This document shows positions 1,357 through 14,161 of a stretch of DNA of 54,866 nt, one piece after another (position 1 is the first letter of the stretch; each line of letters opens with the position of its first letter). Where the stretch lies: the IMG/VR virus record IMGVR_UViG_3300043425_000164, positions 1 through 54,866 of that record, one strand, 5' to 3'. This DNA is from a virus. Lineage: Duplodnaviria > Caudoviricetes. The translations under genes were made by a program, and so were the position numbers. The notes under the pieces are model-generated. The model saw only the letters and a list, made by a program, of their open reading frames with translations, was not told the DNA's origin and did no database searches.

Positions 1357-4300
1357 TCATAGCTCCGATGTTTGGCGAACAAAACCTTTATTGGCTCTGT
1401 TAGTTGTTACTCCGCCAACTACACCTCTTTCGCGTTTAGCCTGTTCTTGTGGAGCTTTTAGTAATGTTGATAATGGCTGTCTTGTGTAACCATTACGAAC
1501 ACGTGATTGCTGTAGTTTTTCCCAATCTTGTCTTGCTTCCGATAGGGCTGCTCCATCACCTTTTCTATACGCCCGTGCATACACACGTTTGATTTCGCTG
1601 GCCTTATCATTATAGAACTGATCGTACTCAAACTTGGCGCTTTGTAAAAATTGTTTATCAGTGAACTGCTTAGTTGGTAAGCCTAAGCCAACCATAAAGG
1701 CCTCTAAAGTACTGACTTCATCTGGGCTGATAAGTACATCGTCTGTACGTGATGTAACGCCCTCAGTGGCGAACCTATAGCCTTTCATGACTTGGGCTAG
1801 TCCGGTGGGCATCAGCTGCTCAATACCTTTGTAGTAGCTTCCCTGACCCATGAGAGATAGGCCGTCGGCTGCTTTTAAGGTTAGGCCACCAAATGGGCCG
1901 GTCATTAGGGCATACCCTGCCTGAGCCACACCTGCTTTGCTAAAGTCAATGTCTGTATATGGCAGGATTGAAAGCATTTGACCCATACCGATCTTACCCG
2001 ACACATCCACACCCATAGCCGCAGGTACACCCTTAACCAGCAAATCAGCTAAGAAATCATCACCAATCGCCCGGCGCATAGCAAGTTCTGGATTATCTGG
2101 CTCATCTTCGTCACCAAAGACTAGACCATATAGGAAAGATAGGGCCGCAAACCCAGGTAATCCCATTACACCGCCCATAGCTGCGGTATGTCCAATTGTG
2201 AACATCAGGGCGCGGCGCCCGATTTGACGAGTCTGCTCATCTTGTCCGGCAAACGCATCATTAAATAGACGGGCCATTAGGCTTAACTGAATTAGCTGAA
2301 ACTTACGGAACTGAGTAGCTAAACGACCTAAACCCTTACGGCTAATACGAGGAGCATTACCTACGCTATAGTCACCGTGGGTGGTGTAAATAACCTTGTC
2401 AGCATAATCAATAGCATTGTTCTTATTAACCCGAGCCTCTAAACGGTACGCTGCTACAGCGGTTGCCACACGGTTAATGGATTCAATGTCTTGTGCAATA
2501 CCACGCAAATACTCTGTAGCACGGCCAAACTTAGCTAGCTTGGAATCCTCAGTAGACCTCCAACGACCTAAGTCCTGCTCAAGGCTAATGTCGATTCTTC
2601 CGCGATTAACGAGCTCCTCAACAACATCTCTAACATCGGCGGGTAGTTTGTTATAGCTATTCTCATCAAGACCATGCTTACGAATAACGCTAGCAATATC
2701 CGAGTACGCATTAGTAAACTCCTTCCAGGCTTTATCGTAGCCATGCTTAGCGCCAATTACAGGCAACGACATCATGAATGGCTGAGTCATATTCTGTAAG
2801 TAGTAAGCAGGATTGGTCAAAAGCATCCAGACAGAGGTTGTATTCAGTGCTTTATCAATAAACGGCGATGGCTCATAATCCAAGCTCATTACATGCCGCT
2901 TCATAAACTCGTTGTAATACCGGCGACGCTCAGCGCGACCTGGGGTACGGGCATCGGCTTCTGCTTTCATCTGACGCAGACTATCGTAAATCTCATCAGA
3001 GTTTTCCAATGAGGAAATAAAGTGTGCCGTGGCTCGACCCTGAGTAGCAAACGCCCGCATCATATCTTTTTCAGCACCAGCAATCTTACGACGGCGACGC
3101 TCAGACTGGCGAGCAGACTGCTCAGACAGCATTGTTAAATGAAGATCGGATAATAAGCGGTTAATCGCTCGTTGAGATTTGTCAGCAGTATTATCGTCCT
3201 GGGTCTCTTCGACCATATTACGTAGGCGATAGAAAAGTCCCTGTACATCTGCTCCGCCGTAGAGGGCGGTACGGGCTGTGTCTTTTTCAAACGGTTCGAC
3301 GAGCGCATAGTTTGTCTCCTCATCACGAGCAATAGCCTTAGCTTCACCCATTGTTTCTGCAAACTGAACAAAGTAATGATCTTGGTTTTTCTCCATTTCA
3401 CGCAGCTTGCTATTTGCTTCGGCTACTTGGTCAGGAGTTGAGTTGGGGTTATCCCTAATATTTTCTTGGTCTAGATATGCCTGTGAACGACCAACCACTA
3501 CATAGTTACCAAAACGCTTCAGAGGCGCATATGGAGATTTGCTATTTACCCGCATCAAGGTGCGGTACTCAGTCAGCGAATTAGCCTTCTTTTTGGTTAG
3601 CTCTGCCACTTCTTGGGCATCACCAGCTTTTTGCGCTGCAGCAATTAATGCATCGTATTCAGTATTAATGTTACGGATAACTGCATCTTGCATTGCCTTT
3701 AATACCTGCTGACCGTGAGTAAAGACTTCTTTAATTAAATTCTGTGCTGCAGCTGGGAACGCATCAAAACGAGCCTTTAATTCAGGGTCAATCTTAGCGC
3801 CCTTGATATTTGGGTCATACGCCCACTCGCCCTTCATCGTCATATCTTTGAGGAACTGATTAACGCTATTCTCGCCAACACCCTTAACTTGGTCTGGCAG
3901 GGCATCGTATTTCTGCAAGATTTGATCTACCCGACGCTCAAAGCGGGTTTTAACAGCTTGCTGCTCTTTAATTAACTGGACATACTTCTTGGCAGAAGGA
4001 ATAAACTTAGCAGCTAGGTCAGCAAGATCTTCGGTAAATGCAAAATACGGTAAACCTTTCTTAGCGAAGTCGACAATGTTATCTGTGATCTGCTGTAATG
4101 GGCCACGAATTGGCTTGGGTAACTTGGCTACCTGTTGTGCAGTGGCCTCTCTAACTTTATTTAGATTAGCGGATTTACTAATATTTGTACGAATAGATGG
4201 GCTTACTTGTACTCGTAGAGCATCCGCTGCTGTTTTCATGCGACTAAGTACGTCAGCAGGCAAAGCCCCTTTAAACGACCCGACATCGACCCTTGCTACT

Positions 4301-7300
4301 CCGCTTGTATCCCCCATTTTGATGCCGGGCAGATATATCGTATTACCAAGTCTATTAGTGGCTTTATATAATGAATAGTCACCTTCTACCCATACCGGAG
4401 CACCATAATCCGCATTTAATGACCAGGTAGGCCATTTGGTAACATTAGTCTGTTTTCCAAAAGATTGAAAGCGTTTGTTAGCTTCTGCAATGTAAGGAGT
4501 TAGAGACTCTGTAAACATACCTTCTGAAATAGCCATTAAGTTGGCCAGAGCAGAATCAGATCTAACTGGTAGGTTTAGAGCACTAGAGATTAGTTTTACA
4601 AACTTGTCCCAGAAAGTAACTTTTGGTGATACTACAACGCTTGCTAAATATTCTTGGAAGTCTTTATTTGTTAAACCCCATGCCAGCAATTCGTCTGGGT
4701 CAGCTAAAGAATTATTTTCTCTTTGGAAGTACCGTTTTTCAAATTCATTTAGTGTACCGTCTGCGGCACGCTTGTTGTAATACGTTACTATTTCGTTAAA
4801 AAGCTCTCTTAACTGTTTGGCTGCTGAGCTGTCAGGAGCCATTTTTATTTGTCCTTGGGTTACAGCATGGATTAGCTCATGTACTAATGTTTCGTAATTA
4901 GTACCGGCTTTGTCCCCAGTATGGGCACCATTAAGGATAACGTCTATCTTTTGAGCCTGACCTAAACCGGCAGGAGTGTAAATAGATATTCCAGATGCGT
5001 TACCAGTTAGTTGTTTACCTGGATTTGTGAGGCTAAAACTAAATTCAACTCCTAAGCTAGCTAGCTCTTTTAAGCGAGCGTCTATTGCACGTAAAACCGT
5101 GCGCTCGTAGTCGTTTCTTGCTTTCGATAAAGCCCAGTTCATTGCCTCTTGAATTGTTTTACCACGGAGGGCTGCGTCTACTTCTTGAGACTGAGGGTCA
5201 ATTAGTGGATTATTTTCGCTAAAAGATCTTTGAACACTTTGAGCTGGAGTCATCATTTTAGCGAGCTTGACTAGCTCAGTTTGAACATCTTCAGGAGTCC
5301 AGTTTTCTTCGCCAAAACTAATCCAGTCGGCTTGCTGTTCTTCACTCAACTCTGAGAACTTTGGAGCATCAGGAAAATCTTTTATGCCTCTGTTCCATGC
5401 TTGCTCAGCTTGTTCTTCTAGCGTCCTCGCGCTGACTTCTTCATCGGCTTGTTCAGCTTCTGCGGCAGCTTCGTCCCTTTCGGTGTCTTCGCTTGGAACT
5501 CTTTGGCGAGCTTCGGCTTGTTTGCGTACAGATACCCTTTTTGTGCTTCGCTTTTGAACGGCATTATCTTCTCCTTTAGCAACACGAACTTCTTGACGAC
5601 GGTTGATTTCTTTAATAATAGCGTCTAGGTCAGAATCAACAATACGCTCATCAATAGCTAAGTTATTAAGTTCAAAGTCTTTTAGGGCTTCAATACCTTT
5701 TTTCTTAAACTTTTGATACGTTCTGTTGGCAGATGCAGCATCTTCTAATTCAGTAGCACCACTTACTTGTGGGTTAAATACTCGGAATCCAGATGCACCA
5801 CCACCTTCTTTTTCGCTAGTTTCTTCACGACCAAGAGTTTGGTCTTCTTTCTCAGCAACCATAGCTGCTTCTTCAGCCATGCTTGGGCCTGCTTCATCCG
5901 ATACGGCAGCTTCACGAGCCGCAACAGCTTCAAAGTCTAGGTCTTCTTCCGTTAATGCTTGCGCTTCGGTTTCAGTTTCTGCTTTGGCAGTAGACTTAAC
6001 CAATAGGTTATAAACATCGTCTTTCGTATAACCTAAGCGTTTAGCGGCTGCAAAGATTCGAGCGCCCCAAGTTTCTTGGGCTGTTGGTCCAGCGATTTGA
6101 GCAATACGAGCATCTGATACACCGTATTCTTTAGCAATTTCAACAGAAGTTTTTTCTCCTGTCAGATACTCCATAACGATACCGCCATCACGAGTACCAA
6201 AAGCGGAGTTAACAATAGTTCTAACCCGCTCTAATGCTTCAATACGATCATCAGGAATTACTTGCGCTTCTTGCCCAGTACTGGGAACGGCATTACTGAC
6301 CCGACCGGCACTGGGCTCAACCCGTGCTCGTACACTTCCTGGTCCGACATTTTGGACTGTACTCGGGAGTATAAGGTTGCTTCCTGTCCCGATGGGTCGA
6401 ACTTCGTTGGGTCGTACAGGCCCACTGACTCCAGGGCTTGCTTCTGCTGCTCTTCCTTGCTCTGATACTGTTCCCAGCCCGGCAGGACTCGGCACTCGCA
6501 GTTGTTGTCTTTCATTTGTTGCTCCTTTAGTTGTTTCGGATGCTAGTTGCTGAAGGGCTACAAAAGCTGGCGCATCCTTGCCAGTCAAAGCCTTATAAAA
6601 ACTATTAAGCTGGTCAGCCTCTTTTAGTGCTTTTGGACCTTCCAAACTTCCAATCAAAACATCTGCACGCTCGGCAGCATCTGCTTTATCCGCAGAACTA
6701 TCGATACCCCACTCAGATAAAAATTTAACTGCTGCGTTATTTACAGTTTTAGCATTTGACTTTAGGGGTACTTTTACAGCGCCAGAATTAAGAGCAGCGC
6801 CAATAATTGATTTTTGCTCAGGGGTCTTGTCTTGATTTAGAGCATCAAGATCAGCCAAAAACTTAGTAGCATCAGCTTGGGTAAATAAAGTCTTACCTGC
6901 AACGGTATAACGTCCTGCAACTTGAGTAGGTTGAACACCATAGGTAGAAGAGATTTCGTCAAACGCAGCTTGTTGCTCTGCTCGTTGTTGAGCAGCTTGT
7001 TGTTCTGCTTGTGTTTGAGCTACTCTTGCTGCCTCAATTTGAGACTCAATATTTTGTCTAGGATTTAAAACAGGGTTGCTATCAATCTGAGCTTGCACAG
7101 CGGCTACTTCTTGCTCAGTTCTAGTTCTCTGGGGTGGGCCTACTAAGATCTCAGAACTATTAGCATCAATGGCTTTATTGATGGCATTACCATCAGGGGT
7201 GGTCGCTTCGCCGGTGCTTAGGTTTGTAGAACCTGGCAATAAACTTCCGGGAGCAGTAACACGATTTAACGTACCAACAACGGCACCAGTACCACCACCT

Positions 7301-8184
7301 AATAAACCGCCTAATGTAGCCGAACCAATAACACCGGTCATAGGCTGAATACTTGGAGCCATTTCACCAGCGGCAAGATTTGCCGATAACTTGGTAGCAC
7401 CTTCTTCAATAAATTCTGAACCAGCCTCAACACCGGTTGTGCGTAAAATGCTCTTTGTACCAGCAGCAAATGCTTTATCAGCACCAACTAAACCAGAAGC
7501 GGCACCAATAACAAAAGGAAGTGGCGTAGCTTTTCTAGCAGCATCAGTCGCCATTTTTTCACGCTGTTCAATTGGTAAGTCCTGTAGTTCAGGAGCATTC
7601 ATTACCATTTGATACGCATCACCAGCAGCATCACCACCAGCTAGCACAGCACCAGCAGCAGAACCACCGGTTAAACCGGCACGGGCAACACCACGCTCGG
7701 TAAGACCGAGGGCACCACCTATCATCTTTCCGCCCTTAATTGCTGCACCAGGACCAACAAAGCTACCAATAGCTTGCGACGCAGCAAGCATAGGATTTTC
7801 TCTTACGTATTTAAAAGCTCCGCCAGCTTGTTCAGCTAGGCTCTCAGACTGCATAGAACGACCGAGTTGGAACTTAGCTTCGGCAGCTTCTAAAGATTGT
7901 TTCTTTTCACCTTCTTCAATAAAACGACCAATAGCAGCAGAAGCCTCTGTGCCGGGCTTTACTATATCTAGGGCTGCTTTAGGAAGGGATGCGACAGCGT
8001 TTGCAAACTCAATAGCGTAATCGTTTGCCGCACCAAATATGCCTCGTTTTTCAGTTACACCAAGATAGCCCGCTACTTCTTTCGGAGATAGACCAGTAAG
8101 TTCGACCCCTTTATCTAGGATCTCTCTATCACTTAGGTCTTTAGCCCACGGTGCTGCTTGGCGAATTTCGTCAAACAAAGACAT
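1357..8184 (-). CDS. Large internal virion/ejection protein (polyvalent: HTH, zincin HExxH and PLxRFG-type regions)
   Basis: 2275 aa; last of three ejection-like genes; Gly/Ala-rich N-terminus; TLVHELIHAVT; YAPLKRFGNY; SVEIAKEYGVSDARIAQI. Confidence 0.8.
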   Translation of the reverse strand: MSLFDEIRQAAPWAKDLSDREILDKGVELTGLSPKEVAGYLGVTEKRGIFGAANDYAIEFANAVASLPKAALDIVKPGTEASAAIGRFIEEGEKKQSLEAAEAKFQLGRSMQSESLAEQAGGAFKYVRENPMLAASQAIGSFVGPGAAIKGGKMIGGALGLTERGVARAGLTGGSAAGAVLAGGDAAGDAYQMVMNAPELQDLPIEQREKMATDAARKATPLPFVIGAASGLVGADKAFAAGTKSILRTTGVEAGSEFIEEGATKLSANLAAGEMAPSIQPMTGVIGSATLGGLLGGGTGAVVGTLNRVTAPGSLLPGSTNLSTGEATTPDGNAINKAIDANSSEILVGPPQRTRTEQEVAAVQAQIDSNPVLNPRQNIESQIEAARVAQTQAEQQAAQQRAEQQAAFDEISSTYGVQPTQVAGRYTVAGKTLFTQADATKFLADLDALNQDKTPEQKSIIGAALNSGAVKVPLKSNAKTVNNAAVKFLSEWGIDSSADKADAAERADVLIGSLEGPKALKEADQLNSFYKALTGKDAPAFVALQQLASETTKGATNERQQLRVPSPAGLGTVSEQGRAAEASPGVSGPVRPNEVRPIGTGSNLILPSTVQNVGPGSVRARVEPSAGRVSNAVPSTGQEAQVIPDDRIEALERVRTIVNSAFGTRDGGIVMEYLTGEKTSVEIAKEYGVSDARIAQIAGPTAQETWGARIFAAAKRLGYTKDDVYNLLVKSTAKAETETEAQALTEEDLDFEAVAAREAAVSDEAGPSMAEEAAMVAEKEDQTLGREETSEKEGGGASGFRVFNPQVSGATELEDAASANRTYQKFKKKGIEALKDFELNNLAIDERIVDSDLDAIIKEINRRQEVRVAKGEDNAVQKRSTKRVSVRKQAEARQRVPSEDTERDEAAAEAEQADEEVSARTLEEQAEQAWNRGIKDFPDAPKFSELSEEQQADWISFGEENWTPEDVQTELVKLAKMMTPAQSVQRSFSENNPLIDPQSQEVDAALRGKTIQEAMNWALSKARNDYERTVLRAIDARLKELASLGVEFSFSLTNPGKQLTGNASGISIYTPAGLGQAQKIDVILNGAHTGDKAGTNYETLVHELIHAVTQGQIKMAPDSSAAKQLRELFNEIVTYYNKRAADGTLNEFEKRYFQRENNSLADPDELLAWGLTNKDFQEYLASVVVSPKVTFWDKFVKLISSALNLPVRSDSALANLMAISEGMFTESLTPYIAEANKRFQSFGKQTNVTKWPTWSLNADYGAPVWVEGDYSLYKATNRLGNTIYLPGIKMGDTSGVARVDVGSFKGALPADVLSRMKTAADALRVQVSPSIRTNISKSANLNKVREATAQQVAKLPKPIRGPLQQITDNIVDFAKKGLPYFAFTEDLADLAAKFIPSAKKYVQLIKEQQAVKTRFERRVDQILQKYDALPDQVKGVGENSVNQFLKDMTMKGEWAYDPNIKGAKIDPELKARFDAFPAAAQNLIKEVFTHGQQVLKAMQDAVIRNINTEYDALIAAAQKAGDAQEVAELTKKKANSLTEYRTLMRVNSKSPYAPLKRFGNYVVVGRSQAYLDQENIRDNPNSTPDQVAEANSKLREMEKNQDHYFVQFAETMGEAKAIARDEETNYALVEPFEKDTARTALYGGADVQGLFYRLRNMVEETQDDNTADKSQRAINRLLSDLHLTMLSEQSARQSERRRRKIAGAEKDMMRAFATQGRATAHFISSLENSDEIYDSLRQMKAEADARTPGRAERRRYYNEFMKRHVMSLDYEPSPFIDKALNTTSVWMLLTNPAYYLQNMTQPFMMSLPVIGAKHGYDKAWKEFTNAYSDIASVIRKHGLDENSYNKLPADVRDVVEELVNRGRIDISLEQDLGRWRSTEDSKLAKFGRATEYLRGIAQDIESINRVATAVAAYRLEARVNKNNAIDYADKVIYTTHGDYSVGNAPRISRKGLGRLATQFRKFQLIQLSLMARLFNDAFAGQDEQTRQIGRRALMFTIGHTAAMGGVMGLPGFAALSFLYGLVFGDEDEPDNPELAMRRAIGDDFLADLLVKGVPAAMGVDVSGKIGMGQMLSILPYTDIDFSKAGVAQAGYALMTGPFGGLTLKAADGLSLMGQGSYYKGIEQLMPTGLAQVMKGYRFATEGVTSRTDDVLISPDEVSTLEAFMVGLGLPTKQFTDKQFLQSAKFEYDQFYNDKASEIKRVYARAYRKGDGAALSEARQDWEKLQQSRVRNGYTRQPLSTLLKAPQEQAKRERGVVGGVTTNRANKGFVRQTSEL
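5418..5564 (-). CDS. Nested 48-aa basic protein (MPFKSEAQKGYLYANKPKLAKEFQAKTPKG...) in the +1 frame of the giant gene
   Basis: SD AAAGGAG at 5571-5577, 6 nt before the ATG; translation resembles a recurrent small phage protein type (MPFKSxAQ...AKEF...TPKG). Confidence 0.7.
   Translation of the reverse strand: MPFKSEAQKGYLYANKPKLAKEFQAKTPKGTKLPQKLNKPMKKSARGR
6258..6515 (-). CDS. Nested 85-aa protein in the +1 frame of the giant gene
   Basis: Context AAAGGAGCAACAAATG gives a strong SD at normal spacing; same frame offset as 5418-5564. Confidence 0.55.
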   Translation of the reverse strand: MKDNNCECRVLPGWEQYQSKEEQQKQALESVGLYDPTKFDPSGQEATLYSRVQSKMSDQEVYEHGLSPVPVGSVMPFPVLGKKRK

Positions 8185-8198
8185 ATTGTATTAATCCT

Positions 8199-9518
8199 TT
8201 ACGGTGCTGCGATGGTTCCGATATTTCTATCTGTATCGTCTGGTATTGCCTTAGGTGGTAATTTTGCCCGAGTTTGTGGAGCTCCGCCAGGGGGATTACC
8301 GTTAAAGTTCCTAAATGCATCTACTACAGGGTTAGCCGCTCCACCGGGGAGTCCTGTTGCCGGTAAAAAATTACCTGGACGCTTTGGATCAGGGATAAAG
8401 ATCTGATTACCAATAGTTACCGATCCGTCTGGATTAACTGTAGGAGCTTTAGTATCAGGAGCTTTAAGAACTAGACCAATAGCTTGTTTTCTAGCCTCTG
8501 GTAGGGTATATGGCTTACCTGTTTTAGGATTATTTTCTCCGGACTCAACAAGTAATTCAGCGTATTCTTCGGCACGAGCTTTTGCACTATCAGCTTTTGT
8601 TCTGCCACCGCTGCGAAGATAAGCACCATAATCTTGATAATATTGGCCTTTATCTTCAGCTTCTTTTTCTTTAATCTTAAGTTGACGCTCACCTTGCATA
8701 TAAGCAATAACTTTATCAGGCGAACCTAGCAGGCTTACAGACTCATTCATAAAGCGGCCCATAGCAGCTTCGGATAATTTATCCACTGCCATATTTAAAT
8801 CGCTAATGGTTTCTAATACATCGCCCTTGGGGCCAAGAACTTGAATGCGGCTACCAATACCGTTCTTACCCTCTACGAACTTGATGTTTTTCATGCCGTT
8901 TTTAGAAGCGACATCGTAGACACCTTTTAGACCAAATGAATCGGCTGCTCCTCTAATAGAGGCTAAGTCATCGTTTAGTTTCTCTTGCTTCTTAAAGAAC
9001 TTGTCTTCGTTTTCTGATTGACGAACTAGCTGTTTTAGCTGAATAGCTTCTACTGTACCTTTACGGCTAATCTGACCGGCTGCTTTTACATAGTCTTCCA
9101 TGCCTTGAGCTTTAGTAAACTCAGTTGGTTTCATTTCAGGAAGGGCAGCTTTACTAGCAGGGATATCACCTTGGCGAACAGCGTTTTCACGCATAGCACC
9201 AGCAGCAGCTTCAGCAGATGCACGCTCAAAGGCTTGATCTTCGGCAGTATTCCCAGGTAAGGCACCTTGATTAGAAAGCATCTGAGCTTGTTGCGTACCA
9301 ATTTCACTACCTGTTTTAAGGGCTTGGGTATAGTCATCAGATTGTCCGACACGAGCTTGTGATTGACGCCATGCTTGATCAAGGGCTTCTTTTTCAGCAA
9401 TTTCTTTGCGTAACTGCTCACGCTGCATTGCACGAAGTTGTTCTTCGCCTAAACGCTCATATGTACTAATTCCGGTGTTTACTGCTGCGCCAAGGGCTGC
9501 ACCTAAGTTAATCGCCAT
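8199..9518 (-). CDS. Internal virion/ejection protein (middle of three)
   Basis: Helical and Ala/Gln-rich; GAALGAA N-terminus; lies between the pilot and giant proteins. Confidence 0.65.
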   Translation of the reverse strand: MAINLGAALGAAVNTGISTYERLGEEQLRAMQREQLRKEIAEKEALDQAWRQSQARVGQSDDYTQALKTGSEIGTQQAQMLSNQGALPGNTAEDQAFERASAEAAAGAMRENAVRQGDIPASKAALPEMKPTEFTKAQGMEDYVKAAGQISRKGTVEAIQLKQLVRQSENEDKFFKKQEKLNDDLASIRGAADSFGLKGVYDVASKNGMKNIKFVEGKNGIGSRIQVLGPKGDVLETISDLNMAVDKLSEAAMGRFMNESVSLLGSPDKVIAYMQGERQLKIKEKEAEDKGQYYQDYGAYLRSGGRTKADSAKARAEEYAELLVESGENNPKTGKPYTLPEARKQAIGLVLKAPDTKAPTVNPDGSVTIGNQIFIPDPKRPGNFLPATGLPGGAANPVVDAFRNFNGNPPGGAPQTRAKLPPKAIPDDTDRNIGTIAAP

Positions 9519-13247: not shown

Positions 13248-13700
13248 CTAACTAAACATTCTAGTGCCTTTTGAGTCAATAATCAAAGCACTTCTCCTTG
13301 GGCGACCGTCAGCAGAATTAGGTACAGAAATATGCACCCATCCGCCGGGTTTGCCTTCTTCGTAGAATTCTTGAATTAACTGATCAAATGGGATTCCGCT
13401 AGCAATAACTAACTTACATACATCTCTAGGGGTCATCCCTGTAACACGAAAATCTGCCGCACAACCAAGCCTATGCTGGGACGTATCCCGACTGCCTATA
13501 GCGTCATTAACTAATTTAGACCTAAAGCCGGAAGTAATAATAATTGGCTGAAGCACTACGTCCCTAACCATTTCAAGCAAATGCGCAAGACGAGTCAGGT
13601 TCTGAACTTCTGCTTCATTAGGAGTATTGTCCCAGCCGCGTCTAGCCGCAGTTTCGGAAGCAGTTAGCTCTTCAAGAGTGAAGTGTCTAGTTAAATTCAC
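13248..13700 (-). CDS. Endolysin, peptidase M15A family
   Basis: HFTLEELT, ITSGFRS, SQHRLGCAAD and WVHIS zinc-peptidase motifs. Confidence 0.9.
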   Translation of the reverse strand: MNLTRHFTLEELTASETAARRGWDNTPNEAEVQNLTRLAHLLEMVRDVVLQPIIITSGFRSKLVNDAIGSRDTSQHRLGCAADFRVTGMTPRDVCKLVIASGIPFDQLIQEFYEEGKPGGWVHISVPNSADGRPRRSALIIDSKGTRMFS

Positions 13701-14161
13701 TTTTTCTCCAGCATCTTGTCTATAGCAGAATTCTTAGCCGCGCTACCTTGGGAGCTACCAAAATAGTACGAAATAATTTGGGTGGCAATCGCTGACAAAA
13801 CCCCCAAGACATAAATAAGTATATCTTTGCGGGTAGAGTCAATACTGCCGTCGTCAAACAAAACTAAGCCAAACAGAATAAAAGTCATCAGCAGCACAGA
13901 CGCTGCCAACACAGGGGTAATGATCTTATTAATTAAAGGCGCAACATCGCTAGTTACAATCTCTGCTTCCCGCTTACGGGCTGAGTCTACGTCTGCAGCA
14001 TAAATTTTAGCTAGCTCGGTATCATTAGCCATCTTAGCTAACTCGCCGTCATTCTGCATTTTTAAAAGCTCGTATTGCGCTTTTGCTCTTTGCTCTGGAT
14101 CAGGTAAAAACCTGTCAATTAGTTTACTACCAATATCTAGGATTGCTCCGATGGGGAACAT
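13697..14161 (-). CDS. Holin-like membrane protein
   Basis: Two transmembrane segments and YYFGSS motif; adjacent to the endolysin. Confidence 0.75.
   Translation of the reverse strand: MFPIGAILDIGSKLIDRFLPDPEQRAKAQYELLKMQNDGELAKMANDTELAKIYAADVDSARKREAEIVTSDVAPLINKIITPVLAASVLLMTFILFGLVLFDDGSIDSTRKDILIYVLGVLSAIATQIISYYFGSSQGSAAKNSAIDKMLEKK

Follow-up and report, generated by a model that had tools for sequence, protein, structure and literature searches.

The stretch of DNA analysed in this study (the window; 54,866 bp) is IMG/VR record IMGVR_UViG_3300043425_000164, which derives from an uncultured phage and is 95% complete by CheckV. Its minus strand carries a giant gene for a putative virion protein, and two small open reading frames (ORFs), ORF1 and ORF2, lie entirely within this host gene in its +1 frame. 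In this study, we compared both nested ORFs with their relatives, and we consider it probable (about 85%) that they are two real small genes embedded in the giant gene. Both had been noticed in an earlier reading of the window (hereafter the original prediction), and the coordinates and the description given there are correct, as the two ORFs share the same Shine-Dalgarno (SD) sequence, spacer, ATG start and frame offset. The features are as follows.

1357..8184, minus strand: host gene, giant virion protein, 2,275 codons (from the ORF list and translation, PHROG and tblastn matches and its position in the structural module)
6522..6528, minus strand: SD sequence AAAGGAG of ORF1, read from the sequence, 6 nucleotides (nt) before the ATG
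6258..6515, minus strand: nested ORF1, 85 codons, +1 frame, from ATG 6515-6513 to TAA 6260-6258, overlapping host residues 557-642
5571..5577, minus strand: SD sequence AAAGGAG of ORF2, read from the sequence, 6 nt before the ATG
5418..5564, minus strand: nested ORF2, 48 codons, +1 frame, from ATG 5564-5562 to TAG 5420-5418, overlapping host residues 874-922

The two starts correspond to nucleotides 1669 and 2620 of the giant gene, both with a remainder of 1 modulo 3, which places both ORFs in the +1 frame. Guanine-plus-cytosine (G+C) content rises from 40-45% in the surrounding sequence to 55-60% across ORF1 and 52-55% across ORF2, and the host-frame reading of the ORF1 segment is enriched in Val, Gly, Pro, Ser and Arg.

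Start signals and frame-specific conservation

The occurrence of such ORFs by chance was assessed within the single sequence by 2000 shuffles that permuted the synonymous codons of the giant gene. The longest ATG-initiated +1 ORF per shuffle had a mean length of 68 codons and reached at least 85 codons in 18.9% of the shuffles; therefore, the length of ORF1 alone is not significant. Different numbers were obtained when a start signal was included: +1 ORFs of at least 40 codons with a strong SD and an ATG occurred 0.055 times per shuffle on average, with one or more in 5.45% of the shuffles and two or more in just 0.05%. The codon-shuffled null that the original prediction had proposed as a check for nested ORFs with SD and ATG thus speaks for it. 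In the giant gene itself, three such ORFs were observed, and its host frame has a strong SD with ATG only where the gene itself begins. The third +1 ORF (2568-2711, 47 codons) was rejected as a chance occurrence, with a noise-like product and a normal host third-position variability of 0.43-0.63, and was used as an internal negative control in the comparative test.

The start signals of both ORFs recur in relatives. ORF1 begins with ATG in 32/32 sequences (the window and 31 loci, with 17 distinct 19-mers), where the start in each relative was picked by hand as the ATG aligning with the family N-terminus. Upstream of it, AGGAG is found at a spacer of 6 nt in 27 of the 32 and AAGGA at 7 nt in the remaining 5. 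Among 23 distinct loci, ORF2 starts with ATG in 22 and with GTG in one, and the starts in relatives are preceded by purine-rich motifs of the GGAG or GAAGG type. Each nested ORF thus has its own conserved ribosome-binding site and start codon. RNA structure around the starts of ORF1 and ORF2 was not significant (z -0.93 and +0.89, respectively), and a scan of positions 5300-8400 detected no sigma-70-like promoter and terminator-like sites only at the chance rate. A separate observation concerns the approximately 40 nt upstream of the ORF1 SD (6536-6574, minus strand), which are near-invariant in four close relatives (3 variable columns); this conservation is lost in distant relatives, and no significant RNA fold was detected there.

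Which of the two frames is under selection was examined with the window and three close relatives whose host proteins are 70-81% identical. Host third codon positions were variable at 196/333, 86/133 and 125/196 sites in three control segments, but at only 4/84 in ORF1 and 3/49 in ORF2 (pooled, 7/133 nested versus 407/662 outside; Fisher p 7e-37). By comparison, the third positions of the nested frame, equivalent to host first positions, were more variable inside the ORFs (43/133) than elsewhere (140/664). The codon differences from the window point in the same direction. Read in the host frame, ORF1 has 9 synonymous and 70 nonsynonymous differences and ORF2 has 4 and 25; read in the +1 frame, the counts are 57 and 30 for ORF1 and 20 and 9 for ORF2. 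The opposite was seen in control segments, where the host frame gave 186/105 and 320/123 (synonymous/nonsynonymous) and the +1 frame gave 40/256 and 49/407. In sliding windows over the well-aligned parts of the giant gene, the reversal was restricted to the ORF1 and ORF2 segments.

The same pattern extends to more distant sequences. Across 23 diverse loci, mean pairwise amino-acid identity in the ORF1 segment was 0.575 in the nested frame versus 0.401 in the host frame, and entropy at the three nested codon positions was 0.90, 0.61 and 1.04 bits. In distant relatives, the ORF1 protein is 40-63% identical to that of the window, whereas the giant protein is just 22-41% identical; ORF1 is thus better conserved than the giant protein that hides it. 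That SD, ATG, frame and protein sequence are kept at such low host identity confirms the expectation of the original prediction that the two ORFs did not arise by chance.

Conservation of the nested frame would not by itself keep the host frame open. We fixed the ORF1 protein, sampled its codons according to their frequencies in 14 large window ORFs and counted stops in the host frame over 3000 resamplings per locus. For each of 24 loci, only 0-0.13% of the resampled sequences had a stop-free host frame; the value for ORF2 of the window was 0.03%. In real sequences, the host frame is open in every locus examined, and stops interrupt the remaining frame in 22 of 23 loci; for ORF2, the +1 and host frames are both free of stops in 23/23 distinct loci checked. 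Observed G+C content was 0.52-0.60 versus 0.43-0.46 expected from the resampled sequences, and therefore the G+C island is a footprint of dual coding. Since the substitution reversal is frame specific and chance openness is at most 0.13%, both frames are under selection. The nested frames are subject to purifying selection at the protein level while the host frame is kept open; across ORF1 and ORF2 the latter is selected only to stay open, through a codon choice that raises local G+C content.

Relatives of the two nested ORFs

A profile of the ORF1 protein identified 32 loci on viral contigs with 42-88% identity to ORF1. In all 32, ORF1 lies inside a long ORF of the same strand (757 to 2,441 codons, in most cases extending beyond the locus end) at the same offset. 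A metagenome scan gave the same arrangement in 29 of 30 loci, the remaining one ending inside ORF1; the metagenome and viral sets have several contigs in common. Of five additional records with the C-terminal domain of the giant protein, three carry ORF1 as well, and a free-standing ORF1 was never found among the loci and records examined. In every locus examined, ORF1 and ORF2, where present, lie wholly inside a same-strand ORF in a different frame. Near-duplicate loci (e.g. L014, L020, L021, L028, L031-L033 and L038) were left out of the comparisons of host identity, of identity and entropy in the 23 loci, and of the ORF2 frames.

The ORF1 protein (85 amino acids (aa), isoelectric point (pI) 5.8) contains the conserved motifs LPGWEQYQSK and PSGQE. 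A hidden Markov model search of 1.84 billion representative proteins with the ORF1 profile returned 13 matches at E<=0.001, twelve of 55-142 aa and one weak match to a 938-aa protein (E 3.8e-4). Among them, P0005 (142 aa, on a 940-nt contig) has an ORF1-type C-terminal half fused to an unrelated N-terminal part of 88 residues, and is either a recombinant or a chimeric assembly. The ORF1 family profile gave a non-significant match to the N-terminal helices of uS15 (E ~0.5) and ORF1 one to Pfam Ribosomal_S16 (E 0.07); both are probably noise.

ORF2 was detected in 29 of the 32 viral ORF1 loci, and two of the others (L024 and L038) end a few hundred bases past ORF1 and are uninformative. Its product is a strongly basic protein of 48 aa (pI 10.6, 14 Lys+Arg) of a family that begins with MPFKS.AQ. 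It matches phrog_1375 (E 7e-5, and 1.4e-4 in a second search), which places ORF2 in this family. Among searched proteins of 24-100 aa, the profile of the ORF2 family matches at least 956 small proteins at E<=0.001, all of them unnamed or annotated as hypothetical. A lead to DUF3008 came from a single neighbour cluster in the Atlas (score 0.84), 15% of whose members carry this domain; Pfam DUF3008 (PF11450) gave no match at E<=10 to ORF2 or to 12 family members. No match to ORF2 was found in the PDB.

In the collection of cultured phages, ORF2 gave five weak matches, and a typical member of its family matched weakly to 7 Streptomyces phages only. The tblastn relatives of ORF2 in P-RSP2, C75C1 and S-CBS2 are free-standing and lie in unannotated gaps between small genes. 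The genomic context of the family was determined for the best 80 of 434 confirmed viral loci, where a member was called nested if the covering ORF had at least 300 codons. Among these 80, 46 are free-standing (40-58 codons), 13 form N-termini and 21 are nested, and in all 21 of the latter the surrounding same-strand ORF has 393-2,044 codons and the family member is in its +1 frame. Only 9 of the 80 loci also carry ORF1. Twelve of the 21 nested cases are in loci without ORF1, and therefore the nesting of ORF2 extends to other host genes. In five loci, the nested member lies near the N-terminus of an acidic gene of ~390-440 codons (L130, 2931-4103; L143, 2886-4082; also L134, L145 and L150). The acidic host gene of ~390 codons in L130 and L143 is situated between the portal (phrog_6547) and virion structural protein genes, which is the usual position of a scaffolding gene. 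Host ORFs of the other nested loci had no useful PHROG match.

In the 13 loci where the module is N-terminal (L074, L099, L100, L106, L108, L114, L119, L123, L131-L133, L142 and L144), a longer protein (114-1,047 aa) begins precisely with the MPFKS module. Family searches, including PHROG, assigned no informative family to these longer proteins, and the module may be a portable N-terminal tag.

The giant protein and its linker segments

The giant gene adjoins the gene of an internal virion protein and stands at the end of the late structural module on the minus strand. This module comprises terminase, portal, major head protein, tail fibres, holin and endolysin, as well as the 607-aa internal virion protein, an acetyltransferase and two structural proteins. 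The position of the giant gene beside these internal virion and structural protein genes suggests that its product may be carried inside the virion and delivered into the host by ejection. Residues 51-408 match phrog_18222. Residues 1365-2256 match phrog_10089 ("DarB-like antirestriction"; E 7.5e-56), covering only the C-terminal part of that profile, and tblastn with residues ~1430-2260 matched 165 records of cultured phages, many annotated as PLxRFG domain or DarB-like. The C-terminal ~900 residues are thus of the PLxRFG/DarB-like type. A Pfam scan of all 2,275 residues detected no domain, including neither the methylase nor the helicase of P1 DarB. The protein has no cysteine in its 2,275 residues, yet 17 Trp.

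The middle of the giant protein (residues ~990-1320, window ~4200-5400, minus strand) contains a HELIH (HExxH) motif near residue 1102, which points to a zincin-like module; the region also matches phrog_2206 ('virion RNA polymerase') weakly. This module is unique to the phage of the window among the 31 relatives compared, in which only its edges align, and the middle of the giant gene looks like a swappable cassette.

Host residues 431-781 were modelled with AlphaFold2 from 19 aligned relatives. Residues 552-643, which cover the ORF1 segment, had a predicted local distance difference test (pLDDT) score of 31-41 and no secondary structure, and their flanks were helical domains with pLDDT 74-86. 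Hence, the host reading of ORF1 is predicted to be a disordered linker between two folded helical domains. The original prediction had called the domain downstream of ORF1 a helix-turn-helix (HTH) segment. The best Foldseek matches of this domain are chains of sigma region 4, which lends some support to that assignment; no Pfam domain was found, and since the Foldseek matches have E values of only 1.5-3, an HTH identity is plausible only.

These neighbouring domains bear on another explanation for ORF1 and ORF2, namely that their products are dedicated chaperones or inhibitors of the domain that follows each of them, HTH-like for ORF1 and zincin-like for ORF2. ORF1 has been seen solely inside this kind of giant gene, the helical HTH-like domain follows it in most relatives, and the isolated ORF1 protein folds poorly, as would be expected of a protein that folds on its partner. 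In three loci (L015, L018 and L037), however, ORF1 is followed by a sequence other than the common HTH-like segment. For ORF2, a partnership with the adjacent zincin domain, as the original prediction had envisaged, did not hold: the module is missing from all 31 relatives compared, which keep ORF2, and the ORF2 family is mainly free-standing or nested in unrelated genes. Overall, we regard dedicated partnership as improbable.

Embedded genes: competing explanations, origin and known systems

Several points weigh against two embedded genes. The coding evidence for ORF1 and ORF2 consists of sequence comparison only, and many loci are near-duplicates, so that locus counts overstate the number of independent lineages. 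ORF1 has no match in Pfam, PHROG, the PDB or the Atlas, nor by Foldseek with its AlphaFold2 model, which is itself poor (pLDDT 62), and a search of the cultured phage collection with the DNA and with the ORF1 protein found nothing. The sole family matched by ORF2, phrog_1375, is of unknown function. Where an ORF is heavily translated, elongating ribosomes may also block part of the access to an internal SD. Finally, one full-length relative (L012) has no detectable ORF2, which is a genuine miss, and a giant gene of 2,171 codons in locus L156 (G003), whose C-terminal domain is 48% identical, has neither nested ORF; the nested genes are therefore not indispensable to every giant gene of this type. 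An in-frame ORF2-like match in G003 (E 0.007) was judged spurious on reading. The original prediction had suggested a general system in polyvalent ejection proteins. Nesting of the ORF2 family in 21 of the best 80 viral loci, 12 of them without ORF1, agrees with a wider occurrence, but G003, which carries neither ORF, limits its generality.

Could the nested frames be translated as extensions of the giant protein instead? Programmed +1 frameshifting at the SD-like motif would produce truncated giant proteins with ORF-encoded tails. Internal SD-like sequences can stimulate frameshifting, as in prfB, and the nested frames are conserved. However, a frameshift would not need the ATG that is present in 32/32 sequences at a fixed 6-7 nt from the SD, the MPFKS N-terminus of ORF2 is the same as in free-standing family members, and no slippery motif was seen by eye, although no systematic search was made. 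We therefore consider frameshifting very unlikely. A similarly low probability is assigned to the possibility that the giant ORF in reality comprises at least three distinct genes interspersed with the small ones, the open host frame being incidental. In its favour, the host frame in both segments is almost free of amino-acid constraint and its reading in the ORF1 segment is predicted to be disordered; against it, the frame is open in every locus examined at a chance of at most 0.13% per locus, and just past the ORF1 stop no host-frame ATG, GTG or TTG with an SD was seen by eye. That ORF1 and ORF2 are chance ORFs, with the SD-like motif reflecting merely Lys-Gly codons of the host, is hardly credible: an 85-codon +1 ORF does appear in nearly a fifth of the shuffles and the third ORF with SD and ATG is indeed noise, but the frame-specific substitution pattern and all comparative results contradict it.

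If ORF1 and ORF2 are embedded genes, ribosomes would initiate independently at the internal SD/ATG sites on the late mRNA of the giant gene, since no promoter-like site was found inside. One transcript would thereby yield the giant protein and two small proteins. The proposal in the original prediction that the giant gene acts as a hidden operon is in this respect strongly backed by the comparative evidence. Its further suggestion that the nested genes encode stoichiometric core proteins is plausible. Because genes of the ORF2 family occur in head modules and in genes at a scaffold position, and because ORF2 is strongly basic, we favour a role of both products as small proteins of the phage head interior or of assembly, made together with the giant internal protein; this assignment is possible, though doubtful.

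With respect to origin, the family of ORF2 is mostly free-standing elsewhere, and ORF2 would therefore be older than the overlap: the small gene may be the older layer, through which the giant gene reads. The giant gene might then be an operon welded into one frame, with the alternative reading of the small gene serving as linker. It is tempting to speculate that giant phage virion-protein genes in general are operons welded in one frame, in which older small head genes such as the MPFKS family persist in the +1 frame, are translated independently and, through their alternative reading, provide the flexible linkers of a single packaged polyprotein made up of formerly separate proteins. We put this forward tentatively, at somewhat less than even odds. 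The usual logic of overprinting would be reversed, as the small gene would be the constrained layer and the linker of the giant protein the passenger. It would also show concretely how operons may give rise to multi-domain polyvalent virion proteins, and G003 offers a natural comparison for the contribution of the nested genes.

Embedded genes are known from other phages. In lambda, the spanin gene Rz wholly contains the small gene Rz1 of this two-component system, which is read from the same strand in the +1 frame and has a start of its own, and in other phages the Rz/Rz1 pair is found in embedded, overlapped and separate forms. ORF1 and ORF2 resemble Rz1 in being nested on the same strand in the +1 frame with their own starts, and the ORF2 family likewise occurs embedded or separate. 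In contrast to Rz, the host is a virion protein gene of 2,275 codons and not a lysis gene, it harbors two unrelated nested genes, and the nested frame is the more constrained one, the host reading being only a linker. Neither product shows a hydrophobic N-terminal segment, a signal peptide or a lipobox (by reading, without a predictor), and the holin and endolysin genes lie away from the giant gene at 13248-14161; a spanin is thus not indicated. Overlaps of the phiX174 type include B in A, E in D, and K, and in classical overprinting the embedded gene is a novelty born inside an older gene. The present case is like these overlaps and viral overprinting in general in that dual coding on one strand is accompanied by a loss of host-frame synonymous variation. 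Unlike classical overprinting, in the case of ORF2 the embedded gene belongs to a widespread older family, and it is the host-frame stretch that looks like the novelty.

Detection of same-strand dual coding through lost host-frame synonymous variation is described in the literature on viral overprinting (PMC8227390, PMC6195259, PMC7531306), and the approach taken here is standard for overlapping genes (PMC7531306, PMC4376164). Polyvalent proteins of phages and conjugative elements were described by Iyer et al. (2017; PMC5512222). The giant protein resembles them in its size, its multiple domains, its variable effector modules and its DarB-like or PLxRFG-type C-terminal region. A term search of that paper gave no instance of 'overlapping', 'frameshift', 'linker' or 'internal start', and 'nested' is used there only for a hairpin fold. 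A literature search, with supplementary files outside its scope, found no report of out-of-frame genes inside polyvalent, DarB-like or PLxRFG genes. Compared with known embedded phage genes, the locus is unusual in three respects: it contains two unrelated nested genes, the nested frames are more constrained than the host frame, and one nested family turns up repeatedly, within head-related host genes of different kinds.

Because an ORF located within a longer one is dropped by gene-calling programs, these two conserved proteins are missing from phage annotation. The data also point to a large uncharacterised family of small proteins, with the at least 956 members counted above, in or beside head genes. 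If the arrangement is general, many conserved small phage proteins would be hidden from annotation, and nested genes would mark the seams of polyvalent-protein assembly.

One further part of the giant gene deviated among close relatives. Host third-position variability falls to 0.20-0.28 at ~3130-3250 (minus strand), and this dip coincides with the start of homology to relative L046 (query residue 62). The +1 ORF at 3135-3401 has a noise-like translation, and the site was judged to be a probable recombination junction and not a third nested gene.

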